Below are positions 2,976-63,393 of a DNA stretch of 64,000 nucleotides, piece after piece (the stretch's first letter is position 1; the number at the start of each line of letters is the position of its first letter). The position numbers and the translations under genes were made by a program. The notes beneath the pieces were generated by a model. The model was not told the DNA's origin and made no database searches. It worked only from the letters and a program-made list of their open reading frames with translations. The stretch is from a virus (lineage: Duplodnaviria; Caudoviricetes): positions 3,486-67,485 of the IMG/VR virus record IMGVR_UViG_2974529611_000001. One strand, given 5' to 3'.

Positions 2976-3007
2976 GCCACATGCTGAATGAGTCTGACGC
3001 GGCACGC

Positions 3008-3013
3008 TATAAT
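3008..3013 (+). promoter_or_regulatory. Consensus -10 hexamer (TATAAT) upstream of the basic-protein cluster
   Basis: Perfect TATAAT in the 2976-3107 intergenic gap; the -35 region is weak. Confidence 0.5.
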
Positions 3014-3107
3014 CGAGGCAGACGACCGGCCCGCCCCATGAAAGGCGTGGCATCGAGTCGGGTAGCCCGGAGGGCGATCACAGGCCGACGCAAGCGAAAG
3101 TGATCTG

Positions 3108-3410
3108 ATGCCAGACTACGGTTCGACACCCAAGGTGCCGAAGCGTCGTCAACGGCCCAAGATGCGACAGCAGCGTCGAGACTACAAACGGAAGCGTGAC
3201 CGTGAAGGTCGCTTCGCTTCCACAGATCGTTCAGTGTCGTCTCGCCGGTATATCAGGGAACTTCGCCGAAAGTCCAAGAACCCCCGCCGTACCCGTAATA
3301 CGTCCAAGAACATCTACAACGAACGTGGCGGACTCAAGTCCGCAAGTGCCAAAAGAGCGGGGAAGCGCCGAGGTACTGCTAGGAATAATTCCAAGCGAAC
3401 TCGGAGGTAG
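3108..3410 (+). CDS. Highly basic (Arg/Lys-rich) protein 1
   Basis: 100 aa, roughly 35-40% K+R, with an RDREGRFA motif. First gene after the TATAAT promoter. Confidence 0.75.
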   Translation: MPDYGSTPKVPKRRQRPKMRQQRRDYKRKRDREGRFASTDRSVSSRRYIRELRRKSKNPRRTRNTSKNIYNERGGLKSASAKRAGKRRGTARNNSKRTRR

Positions 3411-3412
3411 AA

Positions 3413-4066
3413 GTGGCCAAGCGGAAGCGCAAGGCGGTACGGAAGACGCTGAAGTCTGCATCTGCCCGTGGCCGGATTCCTCGCGACAAGAATGGCAAGT
3501 TCGTCAATGCCTCGGGACGTAACAAGTCCAAGGGTGCCAACGTTCAGAACCTGAAGCGCGGTGGGGGAGGCGGTGGTCGCCGTAAGGCCAGCTCTTCGAG
3601 CCGGACTGCATCCAACCGACCAGCGGCCCGCAAGACTGCATCCAATAAGCCGCCGATCACCGGGCAGCCGAAGAAGTCCAGCAGCAAGGCTGGCAAGCCG
3701 CAGACCGGCAAGACGGTCAACAAGCGCAAGCCAATGTCCAGGAAGAAGCGGGCAGCTATTGGCGCAGCAATTGGAGCTGGCACATATATTGCAGCGACCG
3801 GCGCATTCCATGCGGCGGGGAAGATCGGTGAGCACCGGGCCAGGAAGGCCCAGGCCGAGTACTACCGTCGCGAAGACCAGAGAGTCGGGGGATACGCAGC
3901 GGCTCGGAACTACGCCAAGATGGCCTACAATGGACACTCGGTGAAGGCAGGACAGTGGTATCGCCCGACTGAATCGAAGTACACCAAGCCCAAGACGAAG
4001 CGATCTTCCCAGCGGGCGTTGGGCTCGGGTACGCGGGCGTTGGCGGGCACGAGAGCGAGGCGATAA
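3413..4066 (+). CDS. Highly basic protein 2 with a Gly/Ala hydrophobic segment
   Basis: GGAGG RBS and GTG start. RDKNGKFV motif and AAIGAAIGAGTYIAATGAF segment. TAATG-coupled to the next gene. Confidence 0.8.
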   Translation: MAKRKRKAVRKTLKSASARGRIPRDKNGKFVNASGRNKSKGANVQNLKRGGGGGGRRKASSSSRTASNRPAARKTASNKPPITGQPKKSSSKAGKPQTGKTVNKRKPMSRKKRAAIGAAIGAGTYIAATGAFHAAGKIGEHRARKAQAEYYRREDQRVGGYAAARNYAKMAYNGHSVKAGQWYRPTESKYTKPKTKRSSQRALGSGTRALAGTRARR

Positions 4067-5181
4067 TGGCCAAGAAGCGGTACAAGAAGTACCGTCGCCG
4101 TGTTGGTGGCAATCGTGCCTGGGGCAACGCGCTTGGCGGATACCGGACCCAAGCCCGAGTCGATGGACAGTTTGCCTCTGGCAAGGGTGGCAATCGAAAG
4201 TCCGCGTCGGCACGCCGCGCTGAGGGGTACCGCAAGAAGCAGGCCAAGGATCGCAAGCGTCGCAATCGTCGGAATGCCACGGTTGGCGCTGCGGTCGGCG
4301 CCACCATCGTAGTCGGTGCCGGAGCTTACGCTGTCCACAAGAGTCGGCAGTCGAAGGCATCGGCCACCAACGGTGTCCAGATGAAGACCTTCCGCAGTGT
4401 CCAGCGTCGGCCCAAGAAGATCGTTCCGGTCAGCGTTCCCAAGCCTGTGCCTACGGTCGGGAAGACGTCGACGGGGCGAAAGGACTTGCCCAAGAGGCCA
4501 GTCCCGCCGAAGAGCATCGTTGAGCAGGCTCGTGATATCCAGGGGCAGCGTGCGGCATCGAACGAGCGCATGGGAACGTTCAAGTACCGGGGCAACAAGG
4601 GCGAATGGCGCGACCCCAACAACAAGAACAAGCAGCACGGCACCCTGAAGCCGGGGTCGCAGACGAACGGGTCTCAGGACATATTCACCGGCGTCATGCC
4701 TCGGTCAACTGGGCGCTTGAGGGCCCCAGATGCCAACGCACTGAACGCTGCCATGGAGGACTTCGCCAAGTCCCAGGGTGTCCAGCTCGGCGTGACTGCT
4801 CGGAAGACGGTTCGGCGTACTCCGAAGATGACTAAGGGCCAGTTGGCTGGTGCCCTGCGGAAGGATCGCGCTCGGCACTCTCAGCGCGCCCTCAACAATG
4901 GTCGTGCCCTTTGGCACGGCGTCCAGACCGGACAGATCAAGACGGTGCCTGGTACCGGATCAATCAAGGGGATGGCTGGTAAGAAGGCGTTGGCCAATGG
5001 CCAGGACCTCTTCTACCATGGGCCAGGTAGCCACAGTCGAATTGGCATGTCGGGTAGCCACGCGGCAAACCGTGCAATCCAAAACGGTGAGAAGATGTTT
5101 GATGCCCTCTACTACGTTCGGGGCAAGAAACAGTACGCATACCTGGCCGCTAAGAAGAGGAAGAACCCCAAGAAGTATTAA
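4066..5181 (+). CDS. Highly basic protein 3 with a hydrophobic segment
   Basis: GGNRAWGNALGG-x-R-x-Q-x-R-VDGQFA motif shared with 5442..6314, plus ATVGAAVGATIVVGAGAYAV. Confidence 0.8.
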   Translation: MAKKRYKKYRRRVGGNRAWGNALGGYRTQARVDGQFASGKGGNRKSASARRAEGYRKKQAKDRKRRNRRNATVGAAVGATIVVGAGAYAVHKSRQSKASATNGVQMKTFRSVQRRPKKIVPVSVPKPVPTVGKTSTGRKDLPKRPVPPKSIVEQARDIQGQRAASNERMGTFKYRGNKGEWRDPNNKNKQHGTLKPGSQTNGSQDIFTGVMPRSTGRLRAPDANALNAAMEDFAKSQGVQLGVTARKTVRRTPKMTKGQLAGALRKDRARHSQRALNNGRALWHGVQTGQIKTVPGTGSIKGMAGKKALANGQDLFYHGPGSHSRIGMSGSHAANRAIQNGEKMFDALYYVRGKKQYAYLAAKKRKNPKKY

Positions 5182-5184
5182 GGA

Positions 5185-5442
5185 GTGATGGCAATGGCAG
5201 TCAGCCGCATGCCGCCACAGCTTCAAAAGAGCTACCTCACTGGCAAGGTCGCGAAGCGAATCAGGTGGGGAACGCCAGGCGACTATCGTAGATGCCGGAG
5301 GCAGGCTCTCAAGCATGGGATGACTCCGCATCAAGCAGCAGGAGTATGTCAGACGCTACACAAGAAGGCCACTGGTATGTACACTGGTGATCGTCGTCAC
5401 CTTGGCAAGAAGGCCAAGAGAGGCAGAAAGAAGAGGCGATAA
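5185..5442 (+). CDS. Small basic head-associated protein (RWGTPGD..RC..C..LH..ATG type)
   Basis: AAGGAG RBS. The motif IRWGTPGDYRRC...GVCQTLHKKATG resembles one I recall from actinophage head-morphogenesis proteins (unverified). Confidence 0.7.
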   Translation: MMAMAVSRMPPQLQKSYLTGKVAKRIRWGTPGDYRRCRRQALKHGMTPHQAAGVCQTLHKKATGMYTGDRRHLGKKAKRGRKKRR

Positions 5443-6314
5443 TGGCCATCCGGCGTATCAGCGTCCCGAAGATTGGCGGAGGGCGCGCTTGGGGCAATGC
5501 CCTTGGTGGCTTCCGATTCCAGCATCGGAACCGTCTCGGTGAGTTCGCACTGTCTGGGCAGAAGACGAACCGGGAACGGTACCTGGACGCCATCGCCAAG
5601 TCCCGTCGCCGGGGCAAGGTGGCCGCTGCCCGCAAGATCAAGAACCCGAATGCCACGACTCCTCACGGCAAGGCCGCGATGAAGTCGGCGGCGGCGCGGG
5701 CAACGAACGGAACCAAGATCAAGGCGGGCATTGGCATTGCCGGTGGCACCGTAGCGGCCATCGGAATCATCCGGACCGTCTCTGGTCTGTCGCCGTTCTT
5801 TGACATCAGCCGAAAGAACTTCCGTATTGGCGTCAAGCCGTCGGTTGATCTGGGGCGCAACTTCAAGTTGAGCACCGTTCACTCCATCGGTATCGAGCGG
5901 ACTGGCGATGACCTCTTCGACAAGGCCATCAAGCGTGGTCAGGAGGGCGTCTCGATTGGTACTCGCCGAGCCTTTGGCAATGGATCTCGGGGAGACTTGG
6001 CAGTTGGCATCGCCGATAACATCACTGGTCGTCAGACGCAGCTGAAGGTCGCTGGTGTCAAGCTCACCCAGGAAGGCGGCGGTGCCGGATCGGCACGACG
6101 TTGGCGCTACAGCGGTGGCAACAGCAGCGGCAAGGCTGCGGTACCAGGAGCGCCCGCCTCTGCGAAGAATGCCAAGAGTAAGCGCAAGCCTGGCAAGGGT
6201 GCCCACACCGTGACCACCACTGCCAAGGGCAAGCCTGCCGTTCGGGGCCAGCGCCGCAAGAAGAAGGCAAAGGCCGCCAGCCAGAAGCGCCGGGGTCGAA
6301 GCTACACCAAGTGA
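5442..6314 (+). CDS. Highly basic protein 4, paralogous N-terminus with 4066..5181
   Basis: GGGRAWGNALGGFRFQHRNRLGEFA motif, hydrophobic AGIGIAGGTVAAIGII segment, TAATG coupling. Confidence 0.8.
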   Translation: MAIRRISVPKIGGGRAWGNALGGFRFQHRNRLGEFALSGQKTNRERYLDAIAKSRRRGKVAAARKIKNPNATTPHGKAAMKSAAARATNGTKIKAGIGIAGGTVAAIGIIRTVSGLSPFFDISRKNFRIGVKPSVDLGRNFKLSTVHSIGIERTGDDLFDKAIKRGQEGVSIGTRRAFGNGSRGDLAVGIADNITGRQTQLKVAGVKLTQEGGGAGSARRWRYSGGNSSGKAAVPGAPASAKNAKSKRKPGKGAHTVTTTAKGKPAVRGQRRKKKAKAASQKRRGRSYTK

Positions 6315-6355: not shown

Positions 6356-6805
6356 ATGGAGTACATGCCTGCTGATCTGGCCAAGACGCTATCTGCGATG
6401 GCCAGGGGCACCCACAACGAGATTTGTGGATTCATCTTGGATGACTGGACGTTAATCTCTGTCCGGAATGTCGCCCAGTTGCCAACCATAAGCTTTGAGA
6501 TGAGCATGAATGCCATCCTCGGAGCTGTGGAGATGGCCGCAGCATCTGGCCGGGAGATTCTGGGCACCTACCACAGCCACCCTGGCGGATCAACCGAGCC
6601 CAGCGAAACCGACCTTCATGGCTGGCCTCGATTCATTGATGGATCATACGCTCGGTACTGGGTTGTAACTGGCGATACCGTTCGGGAGTTCGAGCGCACC
6701 GGGGAAGGATCAGAGATTGGCTTCCAGCTCATTCATTCTATCGGAATCGGGGTCGTCGTCAAAAGACCCGAAGAAGGTATGGATCAATCGGTACCTGAGG
6801 ATTGA
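6356..6805 (+). CDS. JAB/MPN (JAMM) Zn-metalloprotease
   Basis: Complete JAMM signature: E22 ... HSH-PGGSTEP-S-ET-D (ExnHxHx7Sx2D). AGGAGG RBS. Confidence 0.85.
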   Translation: MEYMPADLAKTLSAMARGTHNEICGFILDDWTLISVRNVAQLPTISFEMSMNAILGAVEMAAASGREILGTYHSHPGGSTEPSETDLHGWPRFIDGSYARYWVVTGDTVREFERTGEGSEIGFQLIHSIGIGVVVKRPEEGMDQSVPED

Positions 6806-7664
6806 TCGTGAGTTCAACAAGGAACTCAATGAAGCACTTGTTCAAGCTGCCGAAGATGTTGAGCGGGAAGTTGCTGAGCTCTTCGCCAAAGCTGGCGTGG
6901 GAGCCACTGTCCGCCGCGCTCAGCTCACAGGAGCTTCAGGAGTTATCACAAAAGTCCTCCATGCTCTATTTCTTTCCTCGGGAACACTCATTGGAACGTA
7001 CCGAGCGAAAGCCGCGACCGAATCCGTCAAGGCCGCCAATGTCTGGGATGATGAGGTACTCAAAGCCCTCATACCGGACCCGGCGAAGCGAAAGGTCTTC
7101 AAGTCCAGTCTTGAGCTTACCGCATCACGCAATGTGGAGGCCATGGTCAAGCGAGTCACCGGTGACACGGTCACTCTGAGCCGGAGGGTATACCGAAGTG
7201 AAGCGTTGGCTCGTGGGCAGATTGACCGTGTCATCAACTCCAGCTTGGCTAAAGGCGACAGTGCTGCTGAGCTCGCACGCAAGGCGAGAGCCTTTATCCA
7301 CCCTTCTACTCCTGGTGGAGCTTCTTACGCTGCTAAGCGCCTTGGTCGTACTGAGATCAATAATGCGTTTCATGCCCAGGCAATCGCCACCAATCAGAAC
7401 CGACCTTGGGTTAGCCAAATCAGGTGGCACCTCAGCGGTAGCCACACACCACGACCTGGTGATCCATGTGAACGGTACCACCGACAGGGAGTATTCCCTG
7501 TGGGATCAACTCCAAAGAAGCCACACCCACAGTGCCTCTGTTACATCACTCCAGAAGTACCGCCAATCGAGGTGATCCTCCAGCAGTACGAGTCGGGGAT
7601 ATATGACCAATGGTTGGCAGATAACAAGCTCGAACGTGACAGTAGGGTATTATCACCTGCGTAA
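6717..7664 (+). CDS. MuF-like minor head morphogenesis protein (start uncertain)
   Basis: AKRLGRTEINNAFH, WHLSGSH...PC and PHPQCLCY are typical MuF C-terminal motifs. Lies just before the scaffold. Confidence 0.8.
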   Translation: MASSSFILSESGSSSKDPKKVWINRYLRIDREFNKELNEALVQAAEDVEREVAELFAKAGVGATVRRAQLTGASGVITKVLHALFLSSGTLIGTYRAKAATESVKAANVWDDEVLKALIPDPAKRKVFKSSLELTASRNVEAMVKRVTGDTVTLSRRVYRSEALARGQIDRVINSSLAKGDSAAELARKARAFIHPSTPGGASYAAKRLGRTEINNAFHAQAIATNQNRPWVSQIRWHLSGSHTPRPGDPCERYHRQGVFPVGSTPKKPHPQCLCYITPEVPPIEVILQQYESGIYDQWLADNKLERDSRVLSPA

Positions 7665-7689
7665 AGGGATCAACGAACCGGAGGTTCAC

Positions 7690-8478
7690 ATGTACGGCTT
7701 GAAGCCACTGAAGGCGCTCTCGGAAGCCACTGCCATTCCATTCTGGTCGCTCAGCATCTACGGTGCTGAGGGCGAAGATGGTGGCGACGGTGGCGACAGC
7801 CAGGGCGGCGGCGATGACGACGGCGGCGACGACGATGGTGGTGACGATGAAGGCGGCGACGACAAGACCGACTTCTCGGCCATCAGCGACCCCAAGGAGC
7901 GCCGCATCGCCGAGCTGAGCGACGAGGCTGCCAAGGCCCGCATCGCCAAGCGGGAGATGAAGAAGCAGCACACCGCTGAGCTCAATGATCTCAACAAGCG
8001 GATCAAGGACCTGGAGAAGGCTGCCAAGGGCGGCGAGGGTGGCCCCGAGATCACCGACGAGATTCGGGCCGAGATCGAGCAGCCCTACGTTGAGAAGATC
8101 GGCCATCTGGAGAAGTTCGCCTACCGGCAGGCCATCGAGAATGCCATCCTCAAGGAGTCCGTGGCGGACGGGGCCGCTCGCCGGGTTTGGTTCGACACCT
8201 CCGACGTGATCGCCAATCTCGACATGGATGCAATCGACTTCGACCTCGAATCAGGTAGTATCGACGGTATCGCGGACGAGCTGAACCGCATCGCCTCAGC
8301 CAAGCCCCATCTCGTGAAGGAGAAGGGCAAGGTCAAGAAGAAGGAAGATGATGGCCAGCAGAGCCGTAGGGGAGCTTCTGGGAGACAACCTGGCGGTGCC
8401 GGGGCCCAAATCCATGGTATGGATAAGTCACGAAGAGATGAACTGGGCGCCAAGTACCCGGTTCTGAATCGCCGCTAG
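7690..8478 (+). CDS. Capsid scaffolding protein
   Basis: GGAGG RBS before ATG 7690. Acidic Gly/Asp linker and coiled coil, directly upstream of the capsid genes. Confidence 0.75.
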   Translation: MYGLKPLKALSEATAIPFWSLSIYGAEGEDGGDGGDSQGGGDDDGGDDDGGDDEGGDDKTDFSAISDPKERRIAELSDEAAKARIAKREMKKQHTAELNDLNKRIKDLEKAAKGGEGGPEITDEIRAEIEQPYVEKIGHLEKFAYRQAIENAILKESVADGAARRVWFDTSDVIANLDMDAIDFDLESGSIDGIADELNRIASAKPHLVKEKGKVKKKEDDGQQSRRGASGRQPGGAGAQIHGMDKSRRDELGAKYPVLNRR

Positions 8479-8902: not shown

Positions 8903-10090
8903 ATGAGCGCAATGAACATGTTGCTCCTGGCTCCGATCTATGGAGCTGAGCGTCGCAACGGTTACCTGACCGAAGCTGACATCGTCCGGACCACCATCGA
9001 CGGCGTTGACCTCAACGCCCTGTGGCAGGACTTCCAGGACTCGGTGAACATCATCAACGAGCACCTGGGTCGACTCGTGGAGCTGCTGACCTTCCCGGTC
9101 ACCAACCCCATCGAGACCGTTCCGCAGGTCGGTGCCACCGAGTTCGAGCTGGCTACCGAGTTCGGTATCCCTCGGTCGCGCAAGGTTGAGGTCGACTACT
9201 TCCACCTCGGCTACGACTTCGATGACTACGATGGTCGTATCGCATACACGTGGAAGTTCCTGCGTGATGCGGATGCCCGTCAGGTCGAGGCCGTCCACCA
9301 GAAGAACCTTGAGGCCGATGGTCGCCTGGTCTTCCGCAAGGTCATGGAAGCCATCTTCGACAACCGGAACCGTGAGGCGGACATTCGTGACCGCCCGTAC
9401 ACGGTCTACCCGTTGTACAACGGTGATGGCACCGTGCCGCCGAGCTACAAGGGCGTCACCTTCGACGGCACCCACTCGCACTACTTGGTCTCGGGCGCTG
9501 CGGCGATCGACTCCAAGGACGTCGAGGACATGTACGACCACATCGCCGAGCATGGCTATGGCATCGAGAATGGCACCACGTTCATCCTCTTCGTCAACAA
9601 GCAGCAGCTCAACGCGATCCGCACCTGGCGTCGCGGCGTGACCAACGCCAACGGTGCAGTGGCAACGTACGACTACATCCCGTCGCCCACTCGCCCGGCC
9701 ATGTTCCTGCCCAACGCCGAGGGCCTGCTGGGCTCCCAGCCGCCTGCGGCATGGAATGGTCTGCCGGTGGACGGATCGTACGGTGACATCCTGATCATCG
9801 AAGAGCCGATGGTTCCGGCCAACTACCTCTTCATGTTCGGAACTGGCGGAGCGGGAAACCTCCAGAACGTCGTGGGCATCCGTGAGCACGAGGCCGAAGC
9901 CTACCGTGGCCTTCGCCTCATGCCGGGCAACCAGGCTCGGTACCCGCTCGTGGACTCGTACTACGGTCGGTCGTTCGGTACCGGCGTTCGTCAGCGTGCT
10001 GGCGCTGCGGTCATGCAGATCAAGGCCAGCGGCACGTACGACATTCCCAACCAGTACAAGCGTGGCACCGGCCTGACCGTGGGAGTCTGA
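8903..10090 (+). CDS. Major capsid protein (HK97 fold inferred)
   Basis: 395 aa, very strong C/G third-position bias, GAGGA RBS, canonical position after scaffold and decoration genes. Confidence 0.85.
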   Translation: MSAMNMLLLAPIYGAERRNGYLTEADIVRTTIDGVDLNALWQDFQDSVNIINEHLGRLVELLTFPVTNPIETVPQVGATEFELATEFGIPRSRKVEVDYFHLGYDFDDYDGRIAYTWKFLRDADARQVEAVHQKNLEADGRLVFRKVMEAIFDNRNREADIRDRPYTVYPLYNGDGTVPPSYKGVTFDGTHSHYLVSGAAAIDSKDVEDMYDHIAEHGYGIENGTTFILFVNKQQLNAIRTWRRGVTNANGAVATYDYIPSPTRPAMFLPNAEGLLGSQPPAAWNGLPVDGSYGDILIIEEPMVPANYLFMFGTGGAGNLQNVVGIREHEAEAYRGLRLMPGNQARYPLVDSYYGRSFGTGVRQRAGAAVMQIKASGTYDIPNQYKRGTGLTVGV

Positions 10091-61541: not shown

Positions 61542-62047
61542 CCGAGAACCACGTCAGCCAGACGCTCGCTGCCAAGGCAGCCATTGAGCAGGCCAAGGTC
61601 AAGAAGCAGACCGAGAAGTCCATGTCCATGTACGCCGATGCCGACTCCATTGGCAAGGTGTGCCGCTACCTGGCAGGCTTCGCCTCTGTGGCATGGAGCA
61701 AGCCGCCGACTGGTGAGTTCGATCCGGACACTGCCAACATGGCAGCGTACCTGGCCGAGAAGCGCCTGGAAGAGATCATCCGAGATCGTATCTCAGAGGT
61801 CATCAACGGCCAGGTGGCGGACATGCTCGAACAGGCCCAGGCCAAGATCAACGCCTTCCCTGATCTGGGTGAGGACCCATACCTGTTCTTCAAGGTGGGG
61901 ATGCGAGTTCGGCTGGCTGAAAGCGATGAGCCGATCTTTGGCACGGTTACCGCCCGCAACCCCAACTCGCCGACGATGGTGAATGTTGAGTGGGATGACG
62001 AAGCCACCAACAGCGTCCTTCGACCCCGAGACCTCGTGGTGCTCTAG
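61538..62047 (+). CDS. Hypothetical protein with SH3/KOW-like C-terminus
   Basis: FKVGMRVRL...GTVT...VNVEWDD pattern. Confidence 0.65.
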   Translation: MTENHVSQTLAAKAAIEQAKVKKQTEKSMSMYADADSIGKVCRYLAGFASVAWSKPPTGEFDPDTANMAAYLAEKRLEEIIRDRISEVINGQVADMLEQAQAKINAFPDLGEDPYLFFKVGMRVRLAESDEPIFGTVTARNPNSPTMVNVEWDDEATNSVLRPRDLVVL

Positions 62048-63393
62048 TGGGTACCACTAGGGCTCGGAACATTGGGGTTGCCGACACGGTTGAGAACCGC
62101 TCTCTCAATCTGATCGGCAAGCCCGATGGGCCGATGAAGTACATTGATGAGTTCGGCTTTGAGGTTGGCACATTCACCAATCCGCGAACCGACCTGTACC
62201 GAGCCAAGGCTCGTACTGAGTTTGGCACCCTGATGCACCACGTCCCGCCCAGCAAGCGGGGCTACTACCGGCCAGAGCAGTGTGCCGACTACGATCCAGA
62301 TGAGTTCGAGTACATCGTGGACCAGAAGGGCTATGCCCTCTGCACTCGGAAGACCAAATCAGGCAAAGCCTGTGCCAGCCGAGCACTCCACATGAGCTGG
62401 GTCTGCACTGCCCATGGTGGTGCTCTGCACCCCCTGGACAAGGCCATCTCTGAGGAGCGAGCATTGATGCCCACCAAGGATGGCGTCAGGCATGGCAACC
62501 AGTACCTGCCCGATGAGTTGGTGGGCCGCATGACTCGGTACCAGAAACTGGTCCACGGCATCATCACAGTCGAAGACCTGGATGACGAAGAGTTGGCCCG
62601 AGGCCAGTGCCGAGACGAAAATGGTCGCTTCAGCGGAAAGCCACCCAAGGCTATCCCCAAGGACATTCATGATGCCCTGGTGCGACGGCTCTTTGAGCGA
62701 GCACGCGAAGCGTTCCAGGCCGAGCTGCTCCCTGCGATCCAGACGCTCGGAGAGCTGGCACGGAGCGATGCTGTGGAACCGGCAGACCGGATCAAGGCCG
62801 CATCCCTGGTCATTGACCGGGTGATGGGCAAGAACGCCGAGGTCATCGTCCACAAGCAGGATGCCCCTTGGGAAGTGGCCCTCAAGACCATCACTGGCGG
62901 AAGTCGCGCCGAGTCCAGACGGGCTCGAGGTCTTGATCCAGAAACAGGCGAACCGATGGTTGACGCCGAGATCATTGATGAGGAGGACGAATATGTTGAG
63001 CTACCTGTTGACGCTGATGGAGATGCATCGGCATCTGGCGTAGGTGAAGACTGGGACCAGGACGAAGACGTACCTGTGGTACGTGGGACTCCTGTCGTTG
63101 AGGACGAGGAGGACGACTACACCACAGTCGGTGCTGCCATTGGCATCGACGAAGAGATACCAGGCGAAGCCGAAGCTAGGAAGGCCGAGGAGACCAAGAA
63201 CCTGCGAGACCGCCTCAAAGAGGCGCGTCGGCAACGGTACTCGGCACGCAATCGTGGGCTGGACTCGGTTGAGGACCTGCCCTACACCATGAAGTCCAAG
63301 AAGAACCCAGATGGTGAGGGGTACCTCATCACTCTGACGCTCGATCTGGACAAAGACCCAGGAAGGAAGCGTCAGAGTGGAGACTTTGGCTGA
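62047..63393 (+). CDS. Probable terminase small subunit
   Basis: CTRKTKSGKAC...CTAHGG (HGG-type motif), RDENGRF, DRIKAASLVIDRVMGK and an acidic tail. Confidence 0.6.
   Translation: MGTTRARNIGVADTVENRSLNLIGKPDGPMKYIDEFGFEVGTFTNPRTDLYRAKARTEFGTLMHHVPPSKRGYYRPEQCADYDPDEFEYIVDQKGYALCTRKTKSGKACASRALHMSWVCTAHGGALHPLDKAISEERALMPTKDGVRHGNQYLPDELVGRMTRYQKLVHGIITVEDLDDEELARGQCRDENGRFSGKPPKAIPKDIHDALVRRLFERAREAFQAELLPAIQTLGELARSDAVEPADRIKAASLVIDRVMGKNAEVIVHKQDAPWEVALKTITGGSRAESRRARGLDPETGEPMVDAEIIDEEDEYVELPVDADGDASASGVGEDWDQDEDVPVVRGTPVVEDEEDDYTTVGAAIGIDEEIPGEAEARKAEETKNLRDRLKEARRQRYSARNRGLDSVEDLPYTMKSKKNPDGEGYLITLTLDLDKDPGRKRQSGDFG

Follow-up and report, generated by a model that had tools for sequence, protein, structure and literature searches.

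Tagged polybasic proteins encoded before a JAMM gene as candidate head cargo of a Lambovirus and related actinophages

According to the general view, the DNA that tailed phages package is almost naked, and the internal proteins of T4 are the textbook exception. This raises the question of which role could be played by five successive genes for extremely basic proteins in the head module of a Gordonia phage. The genes, here termed A to E, are located at 3108-6314 of the stretch of DNA that was analysed (64,000 nucleotides, hereafter the window; bases 3486-67485 of the 67,485-bp genome in IMG/VR record IMGVR_UViG_2974529611_000001), which belongs to Lambovirus, and they end directly in front of a stand-alone gene for a JAMM/Prok-JAB metalloprotease. 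A previous sequence-only reading of this locus had taken the products for proteins which are packaged in the head through a shared motif and which either condense DNA or are ejected. Our follow-up supports this interpretation in part, namely with regard to virion cargo and a shared targeting motif, but the constant partner is JAMM and not MuF, and the motif is not common to all five proteins. At a probability of roughly 0.6, we consider A, B, C and E to be packaged, largely disordered polycationic head cargo, which would be loaded via an N-terminal tag, bind DNA and leave the head together with it. Protein D, in contrast, is a separate, folded and widely distributed domain unlike the other four.

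Five coupled basic genes and a common N-terminal tag

All five genes lie on the plus strand and are closely coupled. Protein A (3108-3410; 100 amino acids (aa), isoelectric point (pI) 12, net charge +32) is followed after a spacing of 2 nucleotides (nt), with GGAGG, by protein B (3413-4066; 217 aa, +53), and proteins C (4066-5181; 371 aa, +67), D (ending at 5442; +22) and E (5442-6314; 290 aa, +51) complete the block. For D, the ATG at 5194 (82 aa) is probably the start, as annotated in relatives, with a GTG at 5185 (85 aa) as the other option. The computed pI values of A to E amount to 11.7-12.0 at a Lys+Arg content of 22-39%, and the JAMM protein, scaffold and major capsid protein (MCP) around the block are acidic (pI 4.7-5.1); gene anatomy, pI and charge hence confirm the five coupled K/R-rich genes that had been read from the DNA. 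At the B/C and D/E junctions, stop and start codons overlap as ATAATG inside one common 12-nt string, GCGATAATGGCC (window 4055-4069 and 5431-5445), which hints that the heads of genes C and E may have arisen by duplication. The first copy of this string (4055-4069) was also marked by the promoter scan as a -10-like GATAAT.

In comparison with LuckyLeo, DumpTruck and Genamy16, the ratio of nonsynonymous to synonymous substitution rates (dN/dS) of the block genes was 0.03-0.29 (A 0.10-0.15; D 0.03-0.08) and therefore similar to that of JAMM, scaffold and MCP, which argues for A to E being real proteins under purifying selection. None of A, B, C and E matched a Pfam or PHROGs family at E 0.1.

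What four of the five have in common is a short motif close to the N-terminus. The pattern R[DNV]x(1-2)GxF, which the sequence-only reading had ascribed to the block, starts at residue 30 in A (RDREGRFA, residues 30-37, nt 3195-3218), 24 in B (RDKNGKFV, residues 24-31, nt 3482-3505), 31 in C and 29 in E, and is missing from D. Composition-preserving shuffles gave the motif in three or more proteins in 0 of 20,000 cases, for a regular expression that had been fitted post hoc. Moreover, the peptide RAWGNALGG is encoded both in C (4114-4140) and in E (5484-5510) and is indeed identical despite six synonymous differences. In these two proteins, RAWGNALGG and RxxxGxF form one contiguous module, i.e., a tag of about 22 residues with the consensus WGNALGG-[YWF]-[KR]-x-Q-x-R-x(2-4)-G-x-F (C: AWGNALGGYRTQARVDGQFA, nt 4117-4176; E: AWGNALGGFRFQHRNRLGEFA, nt 5487-5549), of which A and B carry the RDxxG[RK]F core only.

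Relatives of the tag were found by scanning IMG/VR for the back-translated peptide and via one distant homologue of C. The module occurs in Terapinvirus (Gordonia phages Suzy, Terapin and LilyPad) and in the uncultured lineages L006, L013 and L014, and an alignment of 11 proteins from five lineages showed 12 invariant residues, among them W-G-N-A-L-G-G, Q, R, G and F, followed by sequence that differs throughout. When 5.8 billion proteins were searched with a profile built from this alignment, at least 165 clusters were retrieved, of which 121 were inspected. The full module was present in 119 of these 121 proteins, inside the first 34 residues, with the Trp at a median position of 10 and by residue 30 in 117 of them. 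The inspected proteins have a median pI of 11.7, range from 127 to 741 aa and differ in their C-terminal parts, which are unrelated to each other; many consist of the tag, a basic linker, a Gly/Ala hydrophobic segment ending in an aromatic residue and a variable body. One of them (P0225, an ENA metagenome protein of 471 aa) has its tag and its Gly/Ala segment separated by a GNAT acetyltransferase domain (PF00583). All tagged proteins that bear a name are called "hypothetical protein". The idea of a shared targeting motif is thus plausible and has gained strength, as the tag is strictly N-terminal on 119 otherwise unrelated polybasic proteins. This wider family surfaced only by searching with the tag or by anchoring on the JAMM gene; in 50,697 phage records, tblastn with C and E as queries returned Lambovirus only, and so did a word-indexed search with E.

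Looser forms of the core extend further. Within 4.5 kb upstream of head JAMM genes, an N-terminal R[DGNV]x(2-3)G[RKQE][FWY] was found in 33 of 800 open reading frames (ORFs), versus 1 of 1073 downstream (p 9e-12), and the protein encoded just before JAMM nearly always begins with a variant of it, e.g., MAFNPRQPRDRHGRW, MAYNPLQARDRKGRW (Barnyard gp16) or MAGRWVEALHPRDSRGRF. In a joint alignment, the core Q/H-x-R-D-x-x-G-[RK]-[FW] corresponds to residues 27-35 of E, and WGNALGG represents a lineage-specific extension. Forms of the type RDxxG[RK][FW] are also present in other actinophage lineages and, in addition, within MuF-type head fusion proteins. A second N-terminal motif, TPARRAALxKAQxxSARKRR, heads array members in Patience, Barnyard, L036 and L046 as well as one L013 protein, and the N-terminus of B (…RKTLKSASARGRIPRDKNGKF) looks like a blend of the RDxxGxF and TPARRAAL-type motifs.

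Similar strings were also encountered in other settings and judged to be chance or unrelated. These comprise AWGNALGG-like strings near the C-termini of Gly/Gln-rich metagenomic phage proteins and WGNAFGG outside genes (L012, L016, L019, L027 and L028). In L012, L015, L016, L018-L020 and L025, which are IMG/VR metagenome contigs of unrelated uncultured phages, AWGNA[LF]GG was seen within or close to the C-terminal part of Gly/Gln/Ala-rich ORFs (…GKAWGNALGGFGSLMGQQ, …ANAWGNALGGAANTW…).

The slot before JAMM and the evidence from Patience virions

The basic block is 90-95% identical to that of most of the 29 Lambovirus genomes, whose members are phages of Gordonia rubripertincta/terrae (e.g., Lila22, Ranch and Lambo). 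Their gene order runs from terminase and portal over variable fibre-, esterase- or hydrolase-like genes to the basic block, which is followed by an annotated "metalloprotease", a MuF-like minor capsid protein, the scaffold, a minor capsid protein and the MCP. Reduced to its conserved elements, i.e., portal, (variable fibre genes), basic block, JAMM, (MuF), scaffold and MCP, this order defines the slot of the block and is kept in the 29 Lambovirus genomes, in Terapinvirus, in three metagenomic lineages and in the Mycobacterium phages Patience and Barnyard. Within the slot, gene B varies in copy number from 0 to 2 among relatives, A-like first genes are present in L006, L014 and other lineages, and E is always directly upstream of JAMM in the relatives compared.

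The most constant neighbour is the JAMM gene (6356-6805, plus strand), which begins directly after the block and matches PF14464 at E 2.5e-12 (47.1 bits, cut-off 25). Its E...HxHx7SxxD motif is intact, with E22, H73, H75 and D86 invariant in 18 homologues and S83 kept in the window. In every lineage examined, the tagged or basic block ends directly before a stand-alone Prok-JAB gene. As MuF and D are both missing from Terapinvirus, which does have tagged proteins and JAMM, the tightest link of the tagged proteins is the one to JAMM; the co-occurrence with JAMM and MuF that the sequence-only reading had put forward as a check accordingly holds for the former in every lineage examined and breaks down for the latter in Terapinvirus. 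In the window, MuF is a separate gene (6717-7664, plus strand; phrog_17987, E 2e-74), and none of A to E had a MuF match in Pfam or PHROGs.

Experimental evidence on proteins from this slot comes from Patience, whose head genes are related to those of the window (identities of 57% for MCP, 38% for MuF, i.e., Patience gp20, and 31% for JAMM). Here, gp111 and gp9-gp18 fill the same slot, between portal gp8 and protease gp19. Liquid chromatography with tandem mass spectrometry (LC-MS/MS) showed the product of every gene inserted in the structural operon, apart from gp9, to be particle-associated, the slot genes are labelled "Virion protein" in Table 1 of that study, and gp15 is the protein given for one of the three most abundant bands of the virion (Pope et al. 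2014, PMC4324244). That paper gives no function or charge for the slot proteins, and the word "basic" is absent from it (PMC4324244). As computed here, Patience gp10-gp15, gp17 and gp18 have a pI of 11.4-12 and a net charge of +20 to +49. The capsid of Patience is a supersized T=7 shell of 63 nm inside that holds 70.5 kb, and the shell in high-resolution maps consists of the MCP, a trimeric minor capsid protein and gp4 only (PMC11965321), which implies that the slot proteins are not ordered shell components.

The proteins of the window and those of Patience share the slot in a homologous head module, their mostly polybasic nature and, in several cases, a Gly/Ala segment, whereas the Patience proteins have an N-terminal motif of their own (TPARRAALxKAQ...) and only marginal sequence homology to those of the window. 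We therefore regard the two sets as positional and compositional counterparts, with homology being possible. The statement of the sequence-only reading that no characterised system of this kind exists was nearly right, as our literature search found no paper on the tag, the motifs or polybasic arrays, but analogous virion proteins of Patience had already been listed (PMC4324244).

A further hint is provided by protein D, which matches phrog_6439 (E 2.9e-17, profile positions 13-80 of 82) and is modelled by AlphaFold2 (AF2) as a four-helix domain with a predicted local distance difference test (pLDDT) score of 72, or about 80 in the core; Foldseek gave no PDB match with E below 2.5. An exhaustive HMMER search returned 699 representative proteins with this domain, often as the N- or C-terminal end or as an internal module of proteins of 350-2100 aa. 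The hosts of the domain are portal or MuF-type head proteins according to PHROGs (phrog_859, 18402 and 29860), and some of the fusions also contain ADP-ribosyltransferase or 2H/RNA-ligase-like domains. Among the matches listed, RDxxG[RK]F[AST] is present in 16 of 150 D-domain proteins, with 1.5 expected from shuffles, and two contexts recur, YTPEERSxNASxQxRDxxGRFA and W[DN]ExK[HY]xRDxxGKF. For such MuF fusions, packaging and injection have been proposed in two papers, both of which leave the RDxxG[RK]F motif unmentioned (Iyer et al. 2017, PMC5512222; Jamet et al. 2017, PMC5576092). The MuF polymorphic toxins and polyvalent proteins thus resemble the present case in the D domain and the RDxxG[RK]F motif of MuF/portal fusions and in the idea of head-packaged, injected cargo, but the cargo of the window is encoded by separate genes unfused to MuF and mostly lacks enzyme domains, and Terapinvirus does without any MuF (PMC5512222; PMC5576092). 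Taken together, the portal-to-JAMM slot, the LC-MS/MS data of Patience and the D-domain fusions make virion cargo, of the head in particular, the most likely fate of the block proteins, and the earlier claim of packaging in the head is upheld to this extent.

Three of the proteins contain a Gly/Ala-rich hydrophobic segment between polybasic runs (B: residues 114-132, nt 3752-3808; C: residues 72-90, nt 4279-4335; E: residues 95-113, nt 5724-5780), with 58-74% small residues and 19-residue Kyte-Doolittle means of 1.39, 1.68 and 1.59, respectively, so that a hydropathy of 1.6 is reached by C only. These had been described as Gly-zipper segments; the small-residue stretches are real, but the Pfam glycine-zipper profiles (Gly-zipper_Omp/YMGG type) had no match at E 0.1 in the block proteins. 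Comparable segments occur in Patience gp11, gp13, gp14, gp15 and gp17 as well as in L046, P0199, P0215 and P0225. Structure prediction yielded a pLDDT of 0.44 for C (ESM Atlas, which offered no look-alikes for C or E) and a mean of 54.6 for E (AF2, 14-row alignment), values which would fit proteins that pass a narrow channel. The model of E combines disordered termini with a moderately confident central alpha/beta domain (about residues 103-224), the hydrophobic helix included; the C-tail of E is basic and contains an R-x-Q-R-R motif. No PDB chain reached Z 5 with E (best Z 4.8, helical pieces only), and a Foldseek comparison of the window protein with BFVD gave weak matches of low TM score to Barnyard gp16 (E 3e-4) and Patience gp18 (E 1e-3).

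Probably packaged polycations and the competing explanations

From this evidence we infer a head-internal location in this phage, with the tag as loading signal, DNA binding, co-ejection and processing by JAMM as the likely stations. A, B, C and E would be made late, be incorporated in the procapsid and finally share the interior of the head with the DNA; D is a small helical domain which other phages carry on the MuF head protein. The tag could serve as loading signal into the procapsid in parallel to the capsid targeting sequence of T4, which is likewise a short conserved N-terminus on otherwise unrelated proteins. Possible electrostatic partners are the N-terminal poly-Asp/Gly run of the scaffolding protein (7687-8478, plus strand; PF06810, phrog_4866; GEDGGDGGDSQGGGDDDGGDDDGGDDEGGDD), with similar acidic runs in Suzy gp10 and the L014 scaffold, and the acidic tail of the portal (…EVDEGEEPVDDEEPVA; genome C1:1709-3331, outside the window); both might hold the polycations as long as the scaffold has not yet given way to DNA. 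Inside the head, the proteins would be arranged along the DNA, offsetting some of its charge. By our estimate, one copy each of A to E contributes +225 versus about 135,000 phosphates, and about 60 copies each would offset 10%. At infection, they would exit through portal and tail with the genome, and a function at the host membrane or in the cytoplasm is possible for the Gly/Ala-rich helix and the variable C-terminal parts. DNA condensation, spanning of the envelope and shielding of the DNA, all brought up by the sequence-only reading, would be conceivable effects.

Polycations resembling protamines, which offset the charge of a genome within its capsid, are familiar from adenovirus (VII, V and mu, some of which are trimmed by the virion protease adenain) and from the arginine-rich tails of the capsid proteins of RNA viruses and hepatitis B virus; as these viruses are unrelated, they serve as analogy only. 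The T4 internal proteins IPI, IPII and IPIII are similar in that they form a diverse packaged set with a short common N-terminal signal and a protease encoded in the head module, and they lie among the DNA with about 1000 copies, their lysines contacting DNA phosphates (PMC3012670). However, the present phage is a siphovirus with an HK97-type supersized T=7 capsid, its candidate enzyme is a JAMM metalloenzyme instead of a gp21-type serine protease, and its proteins are far more basic and disordered; no sequence relation between the T4 families and A, B, C and E appeared in Pfam or PHROGs at E 0.1.

With regard to the protease, JAMM probably acts on the proteins encoded before it, possibly by trimming the tag. 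The head module contains no classical prohead protease gene, and JAMM is its only protease-like gene; our literature search found no paper on JAMM as prohead protease or on the role of a head-module JAMM, and PHROGs labels the family "tail protein". A cut after the LGG of the tag would, hypothetically, fit JAMM chemistry. The sole cut mapped in this phage group is the one in the Patience MCP, which is cleaved after Gln82 (PMC4324244). This site (PVVQ|IGETTF) is matched by TVPQ|VGATEF after the conserved Q75 of the window's MCP (8903-10090), which is therefore probably processed as well. The invariant Gln of the tag, two residues before the invariant Arg, offers a lead for cleavage, but nothing more.

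Several points weigh against the cargo reading or its parts. Most other JAMM-linked lineages, with motifs such as NPxQxRDxxGRW or HPRDxxGKF, have no Gly-Gly in the motif, which weakens the idea of cleavage after LGG. The cluster D phage Hawkeye has a head JAMM with only one small basic gene, so that the array appears as an add-on and not as a requirement of the capsid type. A tagged protein of Tsukamurella strandjordii is encoded in an integrase island without recognisable head genes, and may be the remnant of a phage or another element. The virion data stem from Patience, and our literature search returned no virion paper for any Lambovirus; the band assignment of gp15 is itself worded as "likely" (PMC4324244). 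As the Patience proteins are headed by TPARRAALxKAQxxSARKRR, the packaging evidence does not cover the RDxxGxF tag. An hhalign comparison of the E groups (Lambovirus versus Barnyard, Patience and Suzy) aligned the N-terminal motif only (E 0.085), and a hidden Markov model of the basic-plus-hydrophobic segment of C had its sole non-self matches among 2417 ORFs in Patience gp13/gp14 (E 0.012) and L046 (E 0.004). Given this marginal homology of A, B, C and E to the Patience and Barnyard proteins, the transfer relies on synteny and likeness and not on proven orthology. Finally, particle association is no proof of a site inside the head, and a place in neck or tail is possible.

A broader version of the cargo proposal is tentative. 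Patience-like actinophages (Lambovirus, Terapinvirus, cluster H, Patience and uncultured relatives) might share a tag-directed cargo-loading system for swappable polycations and occasional enzymes such as a GNAT, in which JAMM would process the cargo and maybe also be the long-missing prohead protease, responsible for the cut of the MCP after Gln. The cargo would then be a phage "protamine" that helps to fit 65-70 kb into a T=7 shell and is subsequently injected. If true, this would bear on the management of charge and pressure in supersized T=7 capsids, on what enters mycobacteria and their relatives along with the genome, and on the role of JAMM proteases in head modules. The tag might also be used to load foreign proteins into capsids of mycobacteriophages and Gordonia phages, and a functional lead would emerge for a dozen genes that are called "hypothetical" in the genomes of Patience, cluster H, Lambovirus and Terapinvirus.

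An alternative which we consider rather unlikely sees ejection as the main job. A, B, C and E would then be pilot or ejectosome proteins whose Gly-zipper helices oligomerise and insert in the cytoplasmic membrane, or span the mycolic envelope, as a conduit for DNA held by the basic regions. The internal proteins gp7, gp16 and gp20 of P22 and the core proteins gp14-16 of T7, which leave with the DNA and have membrane-active segments, set a precedent, the small-residue segment between polybasic runs recurs in B, C and E and in the Patience and metagenomic proteins named above, and the isolated phages with such arrays all have Gordonia or Mycobacterium as hosts. The P22 and T7 proteins, however, belong to podoviruses, are not polybasic and have no sequence or fold match to the window proteins. 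Furthermore, a hydropathy of 1.39-1.68 is at the limit of what a membrane helix would have, the strong positive charge on both flanks runs counter to ordinary topology rules, and A and the A-like proteins lack the segment altogether. The AF2 model packs the helix of E against its own alpha/beta domain, and in siphophages the tape measure protein already fills this role.

It is still less probable that the proteins are assembly factors in the infected cell, either as partners of the acidic scaffold and portal that nucleate procapsids or as late compactors of host or phage DNA, with their presence in particles being adventitious. Such very basic proteins readily co-purify with DNA-filled particles, the acidic runs of scaffold and portal could pair with polycations, and the variable copy number of B suggests that B is dispensable. 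Against this stand the recovery of all Patience slot products except gp9 in particles, with gp15 in a major gel band (PMC4324244), and the covalent joining of D's domain to MuF head proteins elsewhere; a strict N-terminal tag on unrelated bodies, including an enzyme domain, also fits delivery better than scaffolding. Structural parts of neck or tail, or an external decoration, are very unlikely: the fibre-like and esterase genes between portal and block in many relatives and the "tail protein" label of the JAMM family would suit them, but the blocks of Genamy16 and L006 follow right after the portal with no fibre genes between, the tail genes are grouped separately further downstream, a mostly disordered state at pI 12 is predicted for the proteins, and the Patience shell maps contain no such component (PMC11965321).

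Further genes and minor observations

Just upstream of the block, a small basic ORF of 40 aa (2981-3103, plus strand) is present, for which the annotations of LuckyLeo (gp4, 65 aa) and Ranch (gp6) give longer versions; its membership in the block is uncertain. The TATAAT hexamer which had been proposed as the block's own promoter does exist (3008-3013), but it is located inside this ORF and the scan found no -35 element.

In Suzy, an unannotated ORF for a very basic protein of 59 aa (…SKKQWRWAFANKKSWARRHAHRTPGG…) lies between the annotated gp7 and gp8 (L105:4916-5095). Patience gp10 and Barnyard gp9 belong to the same family, which has further members in L033 and L046 and accounts for the sole basic gene preceding JAMM in Hawkeye (L080); the block of the window contains no copy.

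The tagged Tsukamurella protein, which is basic and 165 aa long, is encoded on a 396-kb contig (L112:8001-8498) and adjoins integrase and resolvase genes.

The UniProt name "Capsid maturation protease" is attached to BFVD entry Q856F6, i.e., Barnyard gp16, an E-like polybasic protein of 211 aa with no protease motif. This is probably a misplaced annotation, JAMM being the next gene, gp17.

A protein of 448 aa (62047-63393) resembles the small terminase subunit (TerS; phrog_10899, E 8e-83). Its RDENGRFS, which had been counted as an instance of the shared motif, was set aside, since it is only partly conserved and relatives show RASNGSF, RGKDGRF or RNDDGRP. The gene is located at the right end of the genome, with the large terminase far off at the left end, and proteins of this family are also kept in L006, L014 and Barnyard (gp2).

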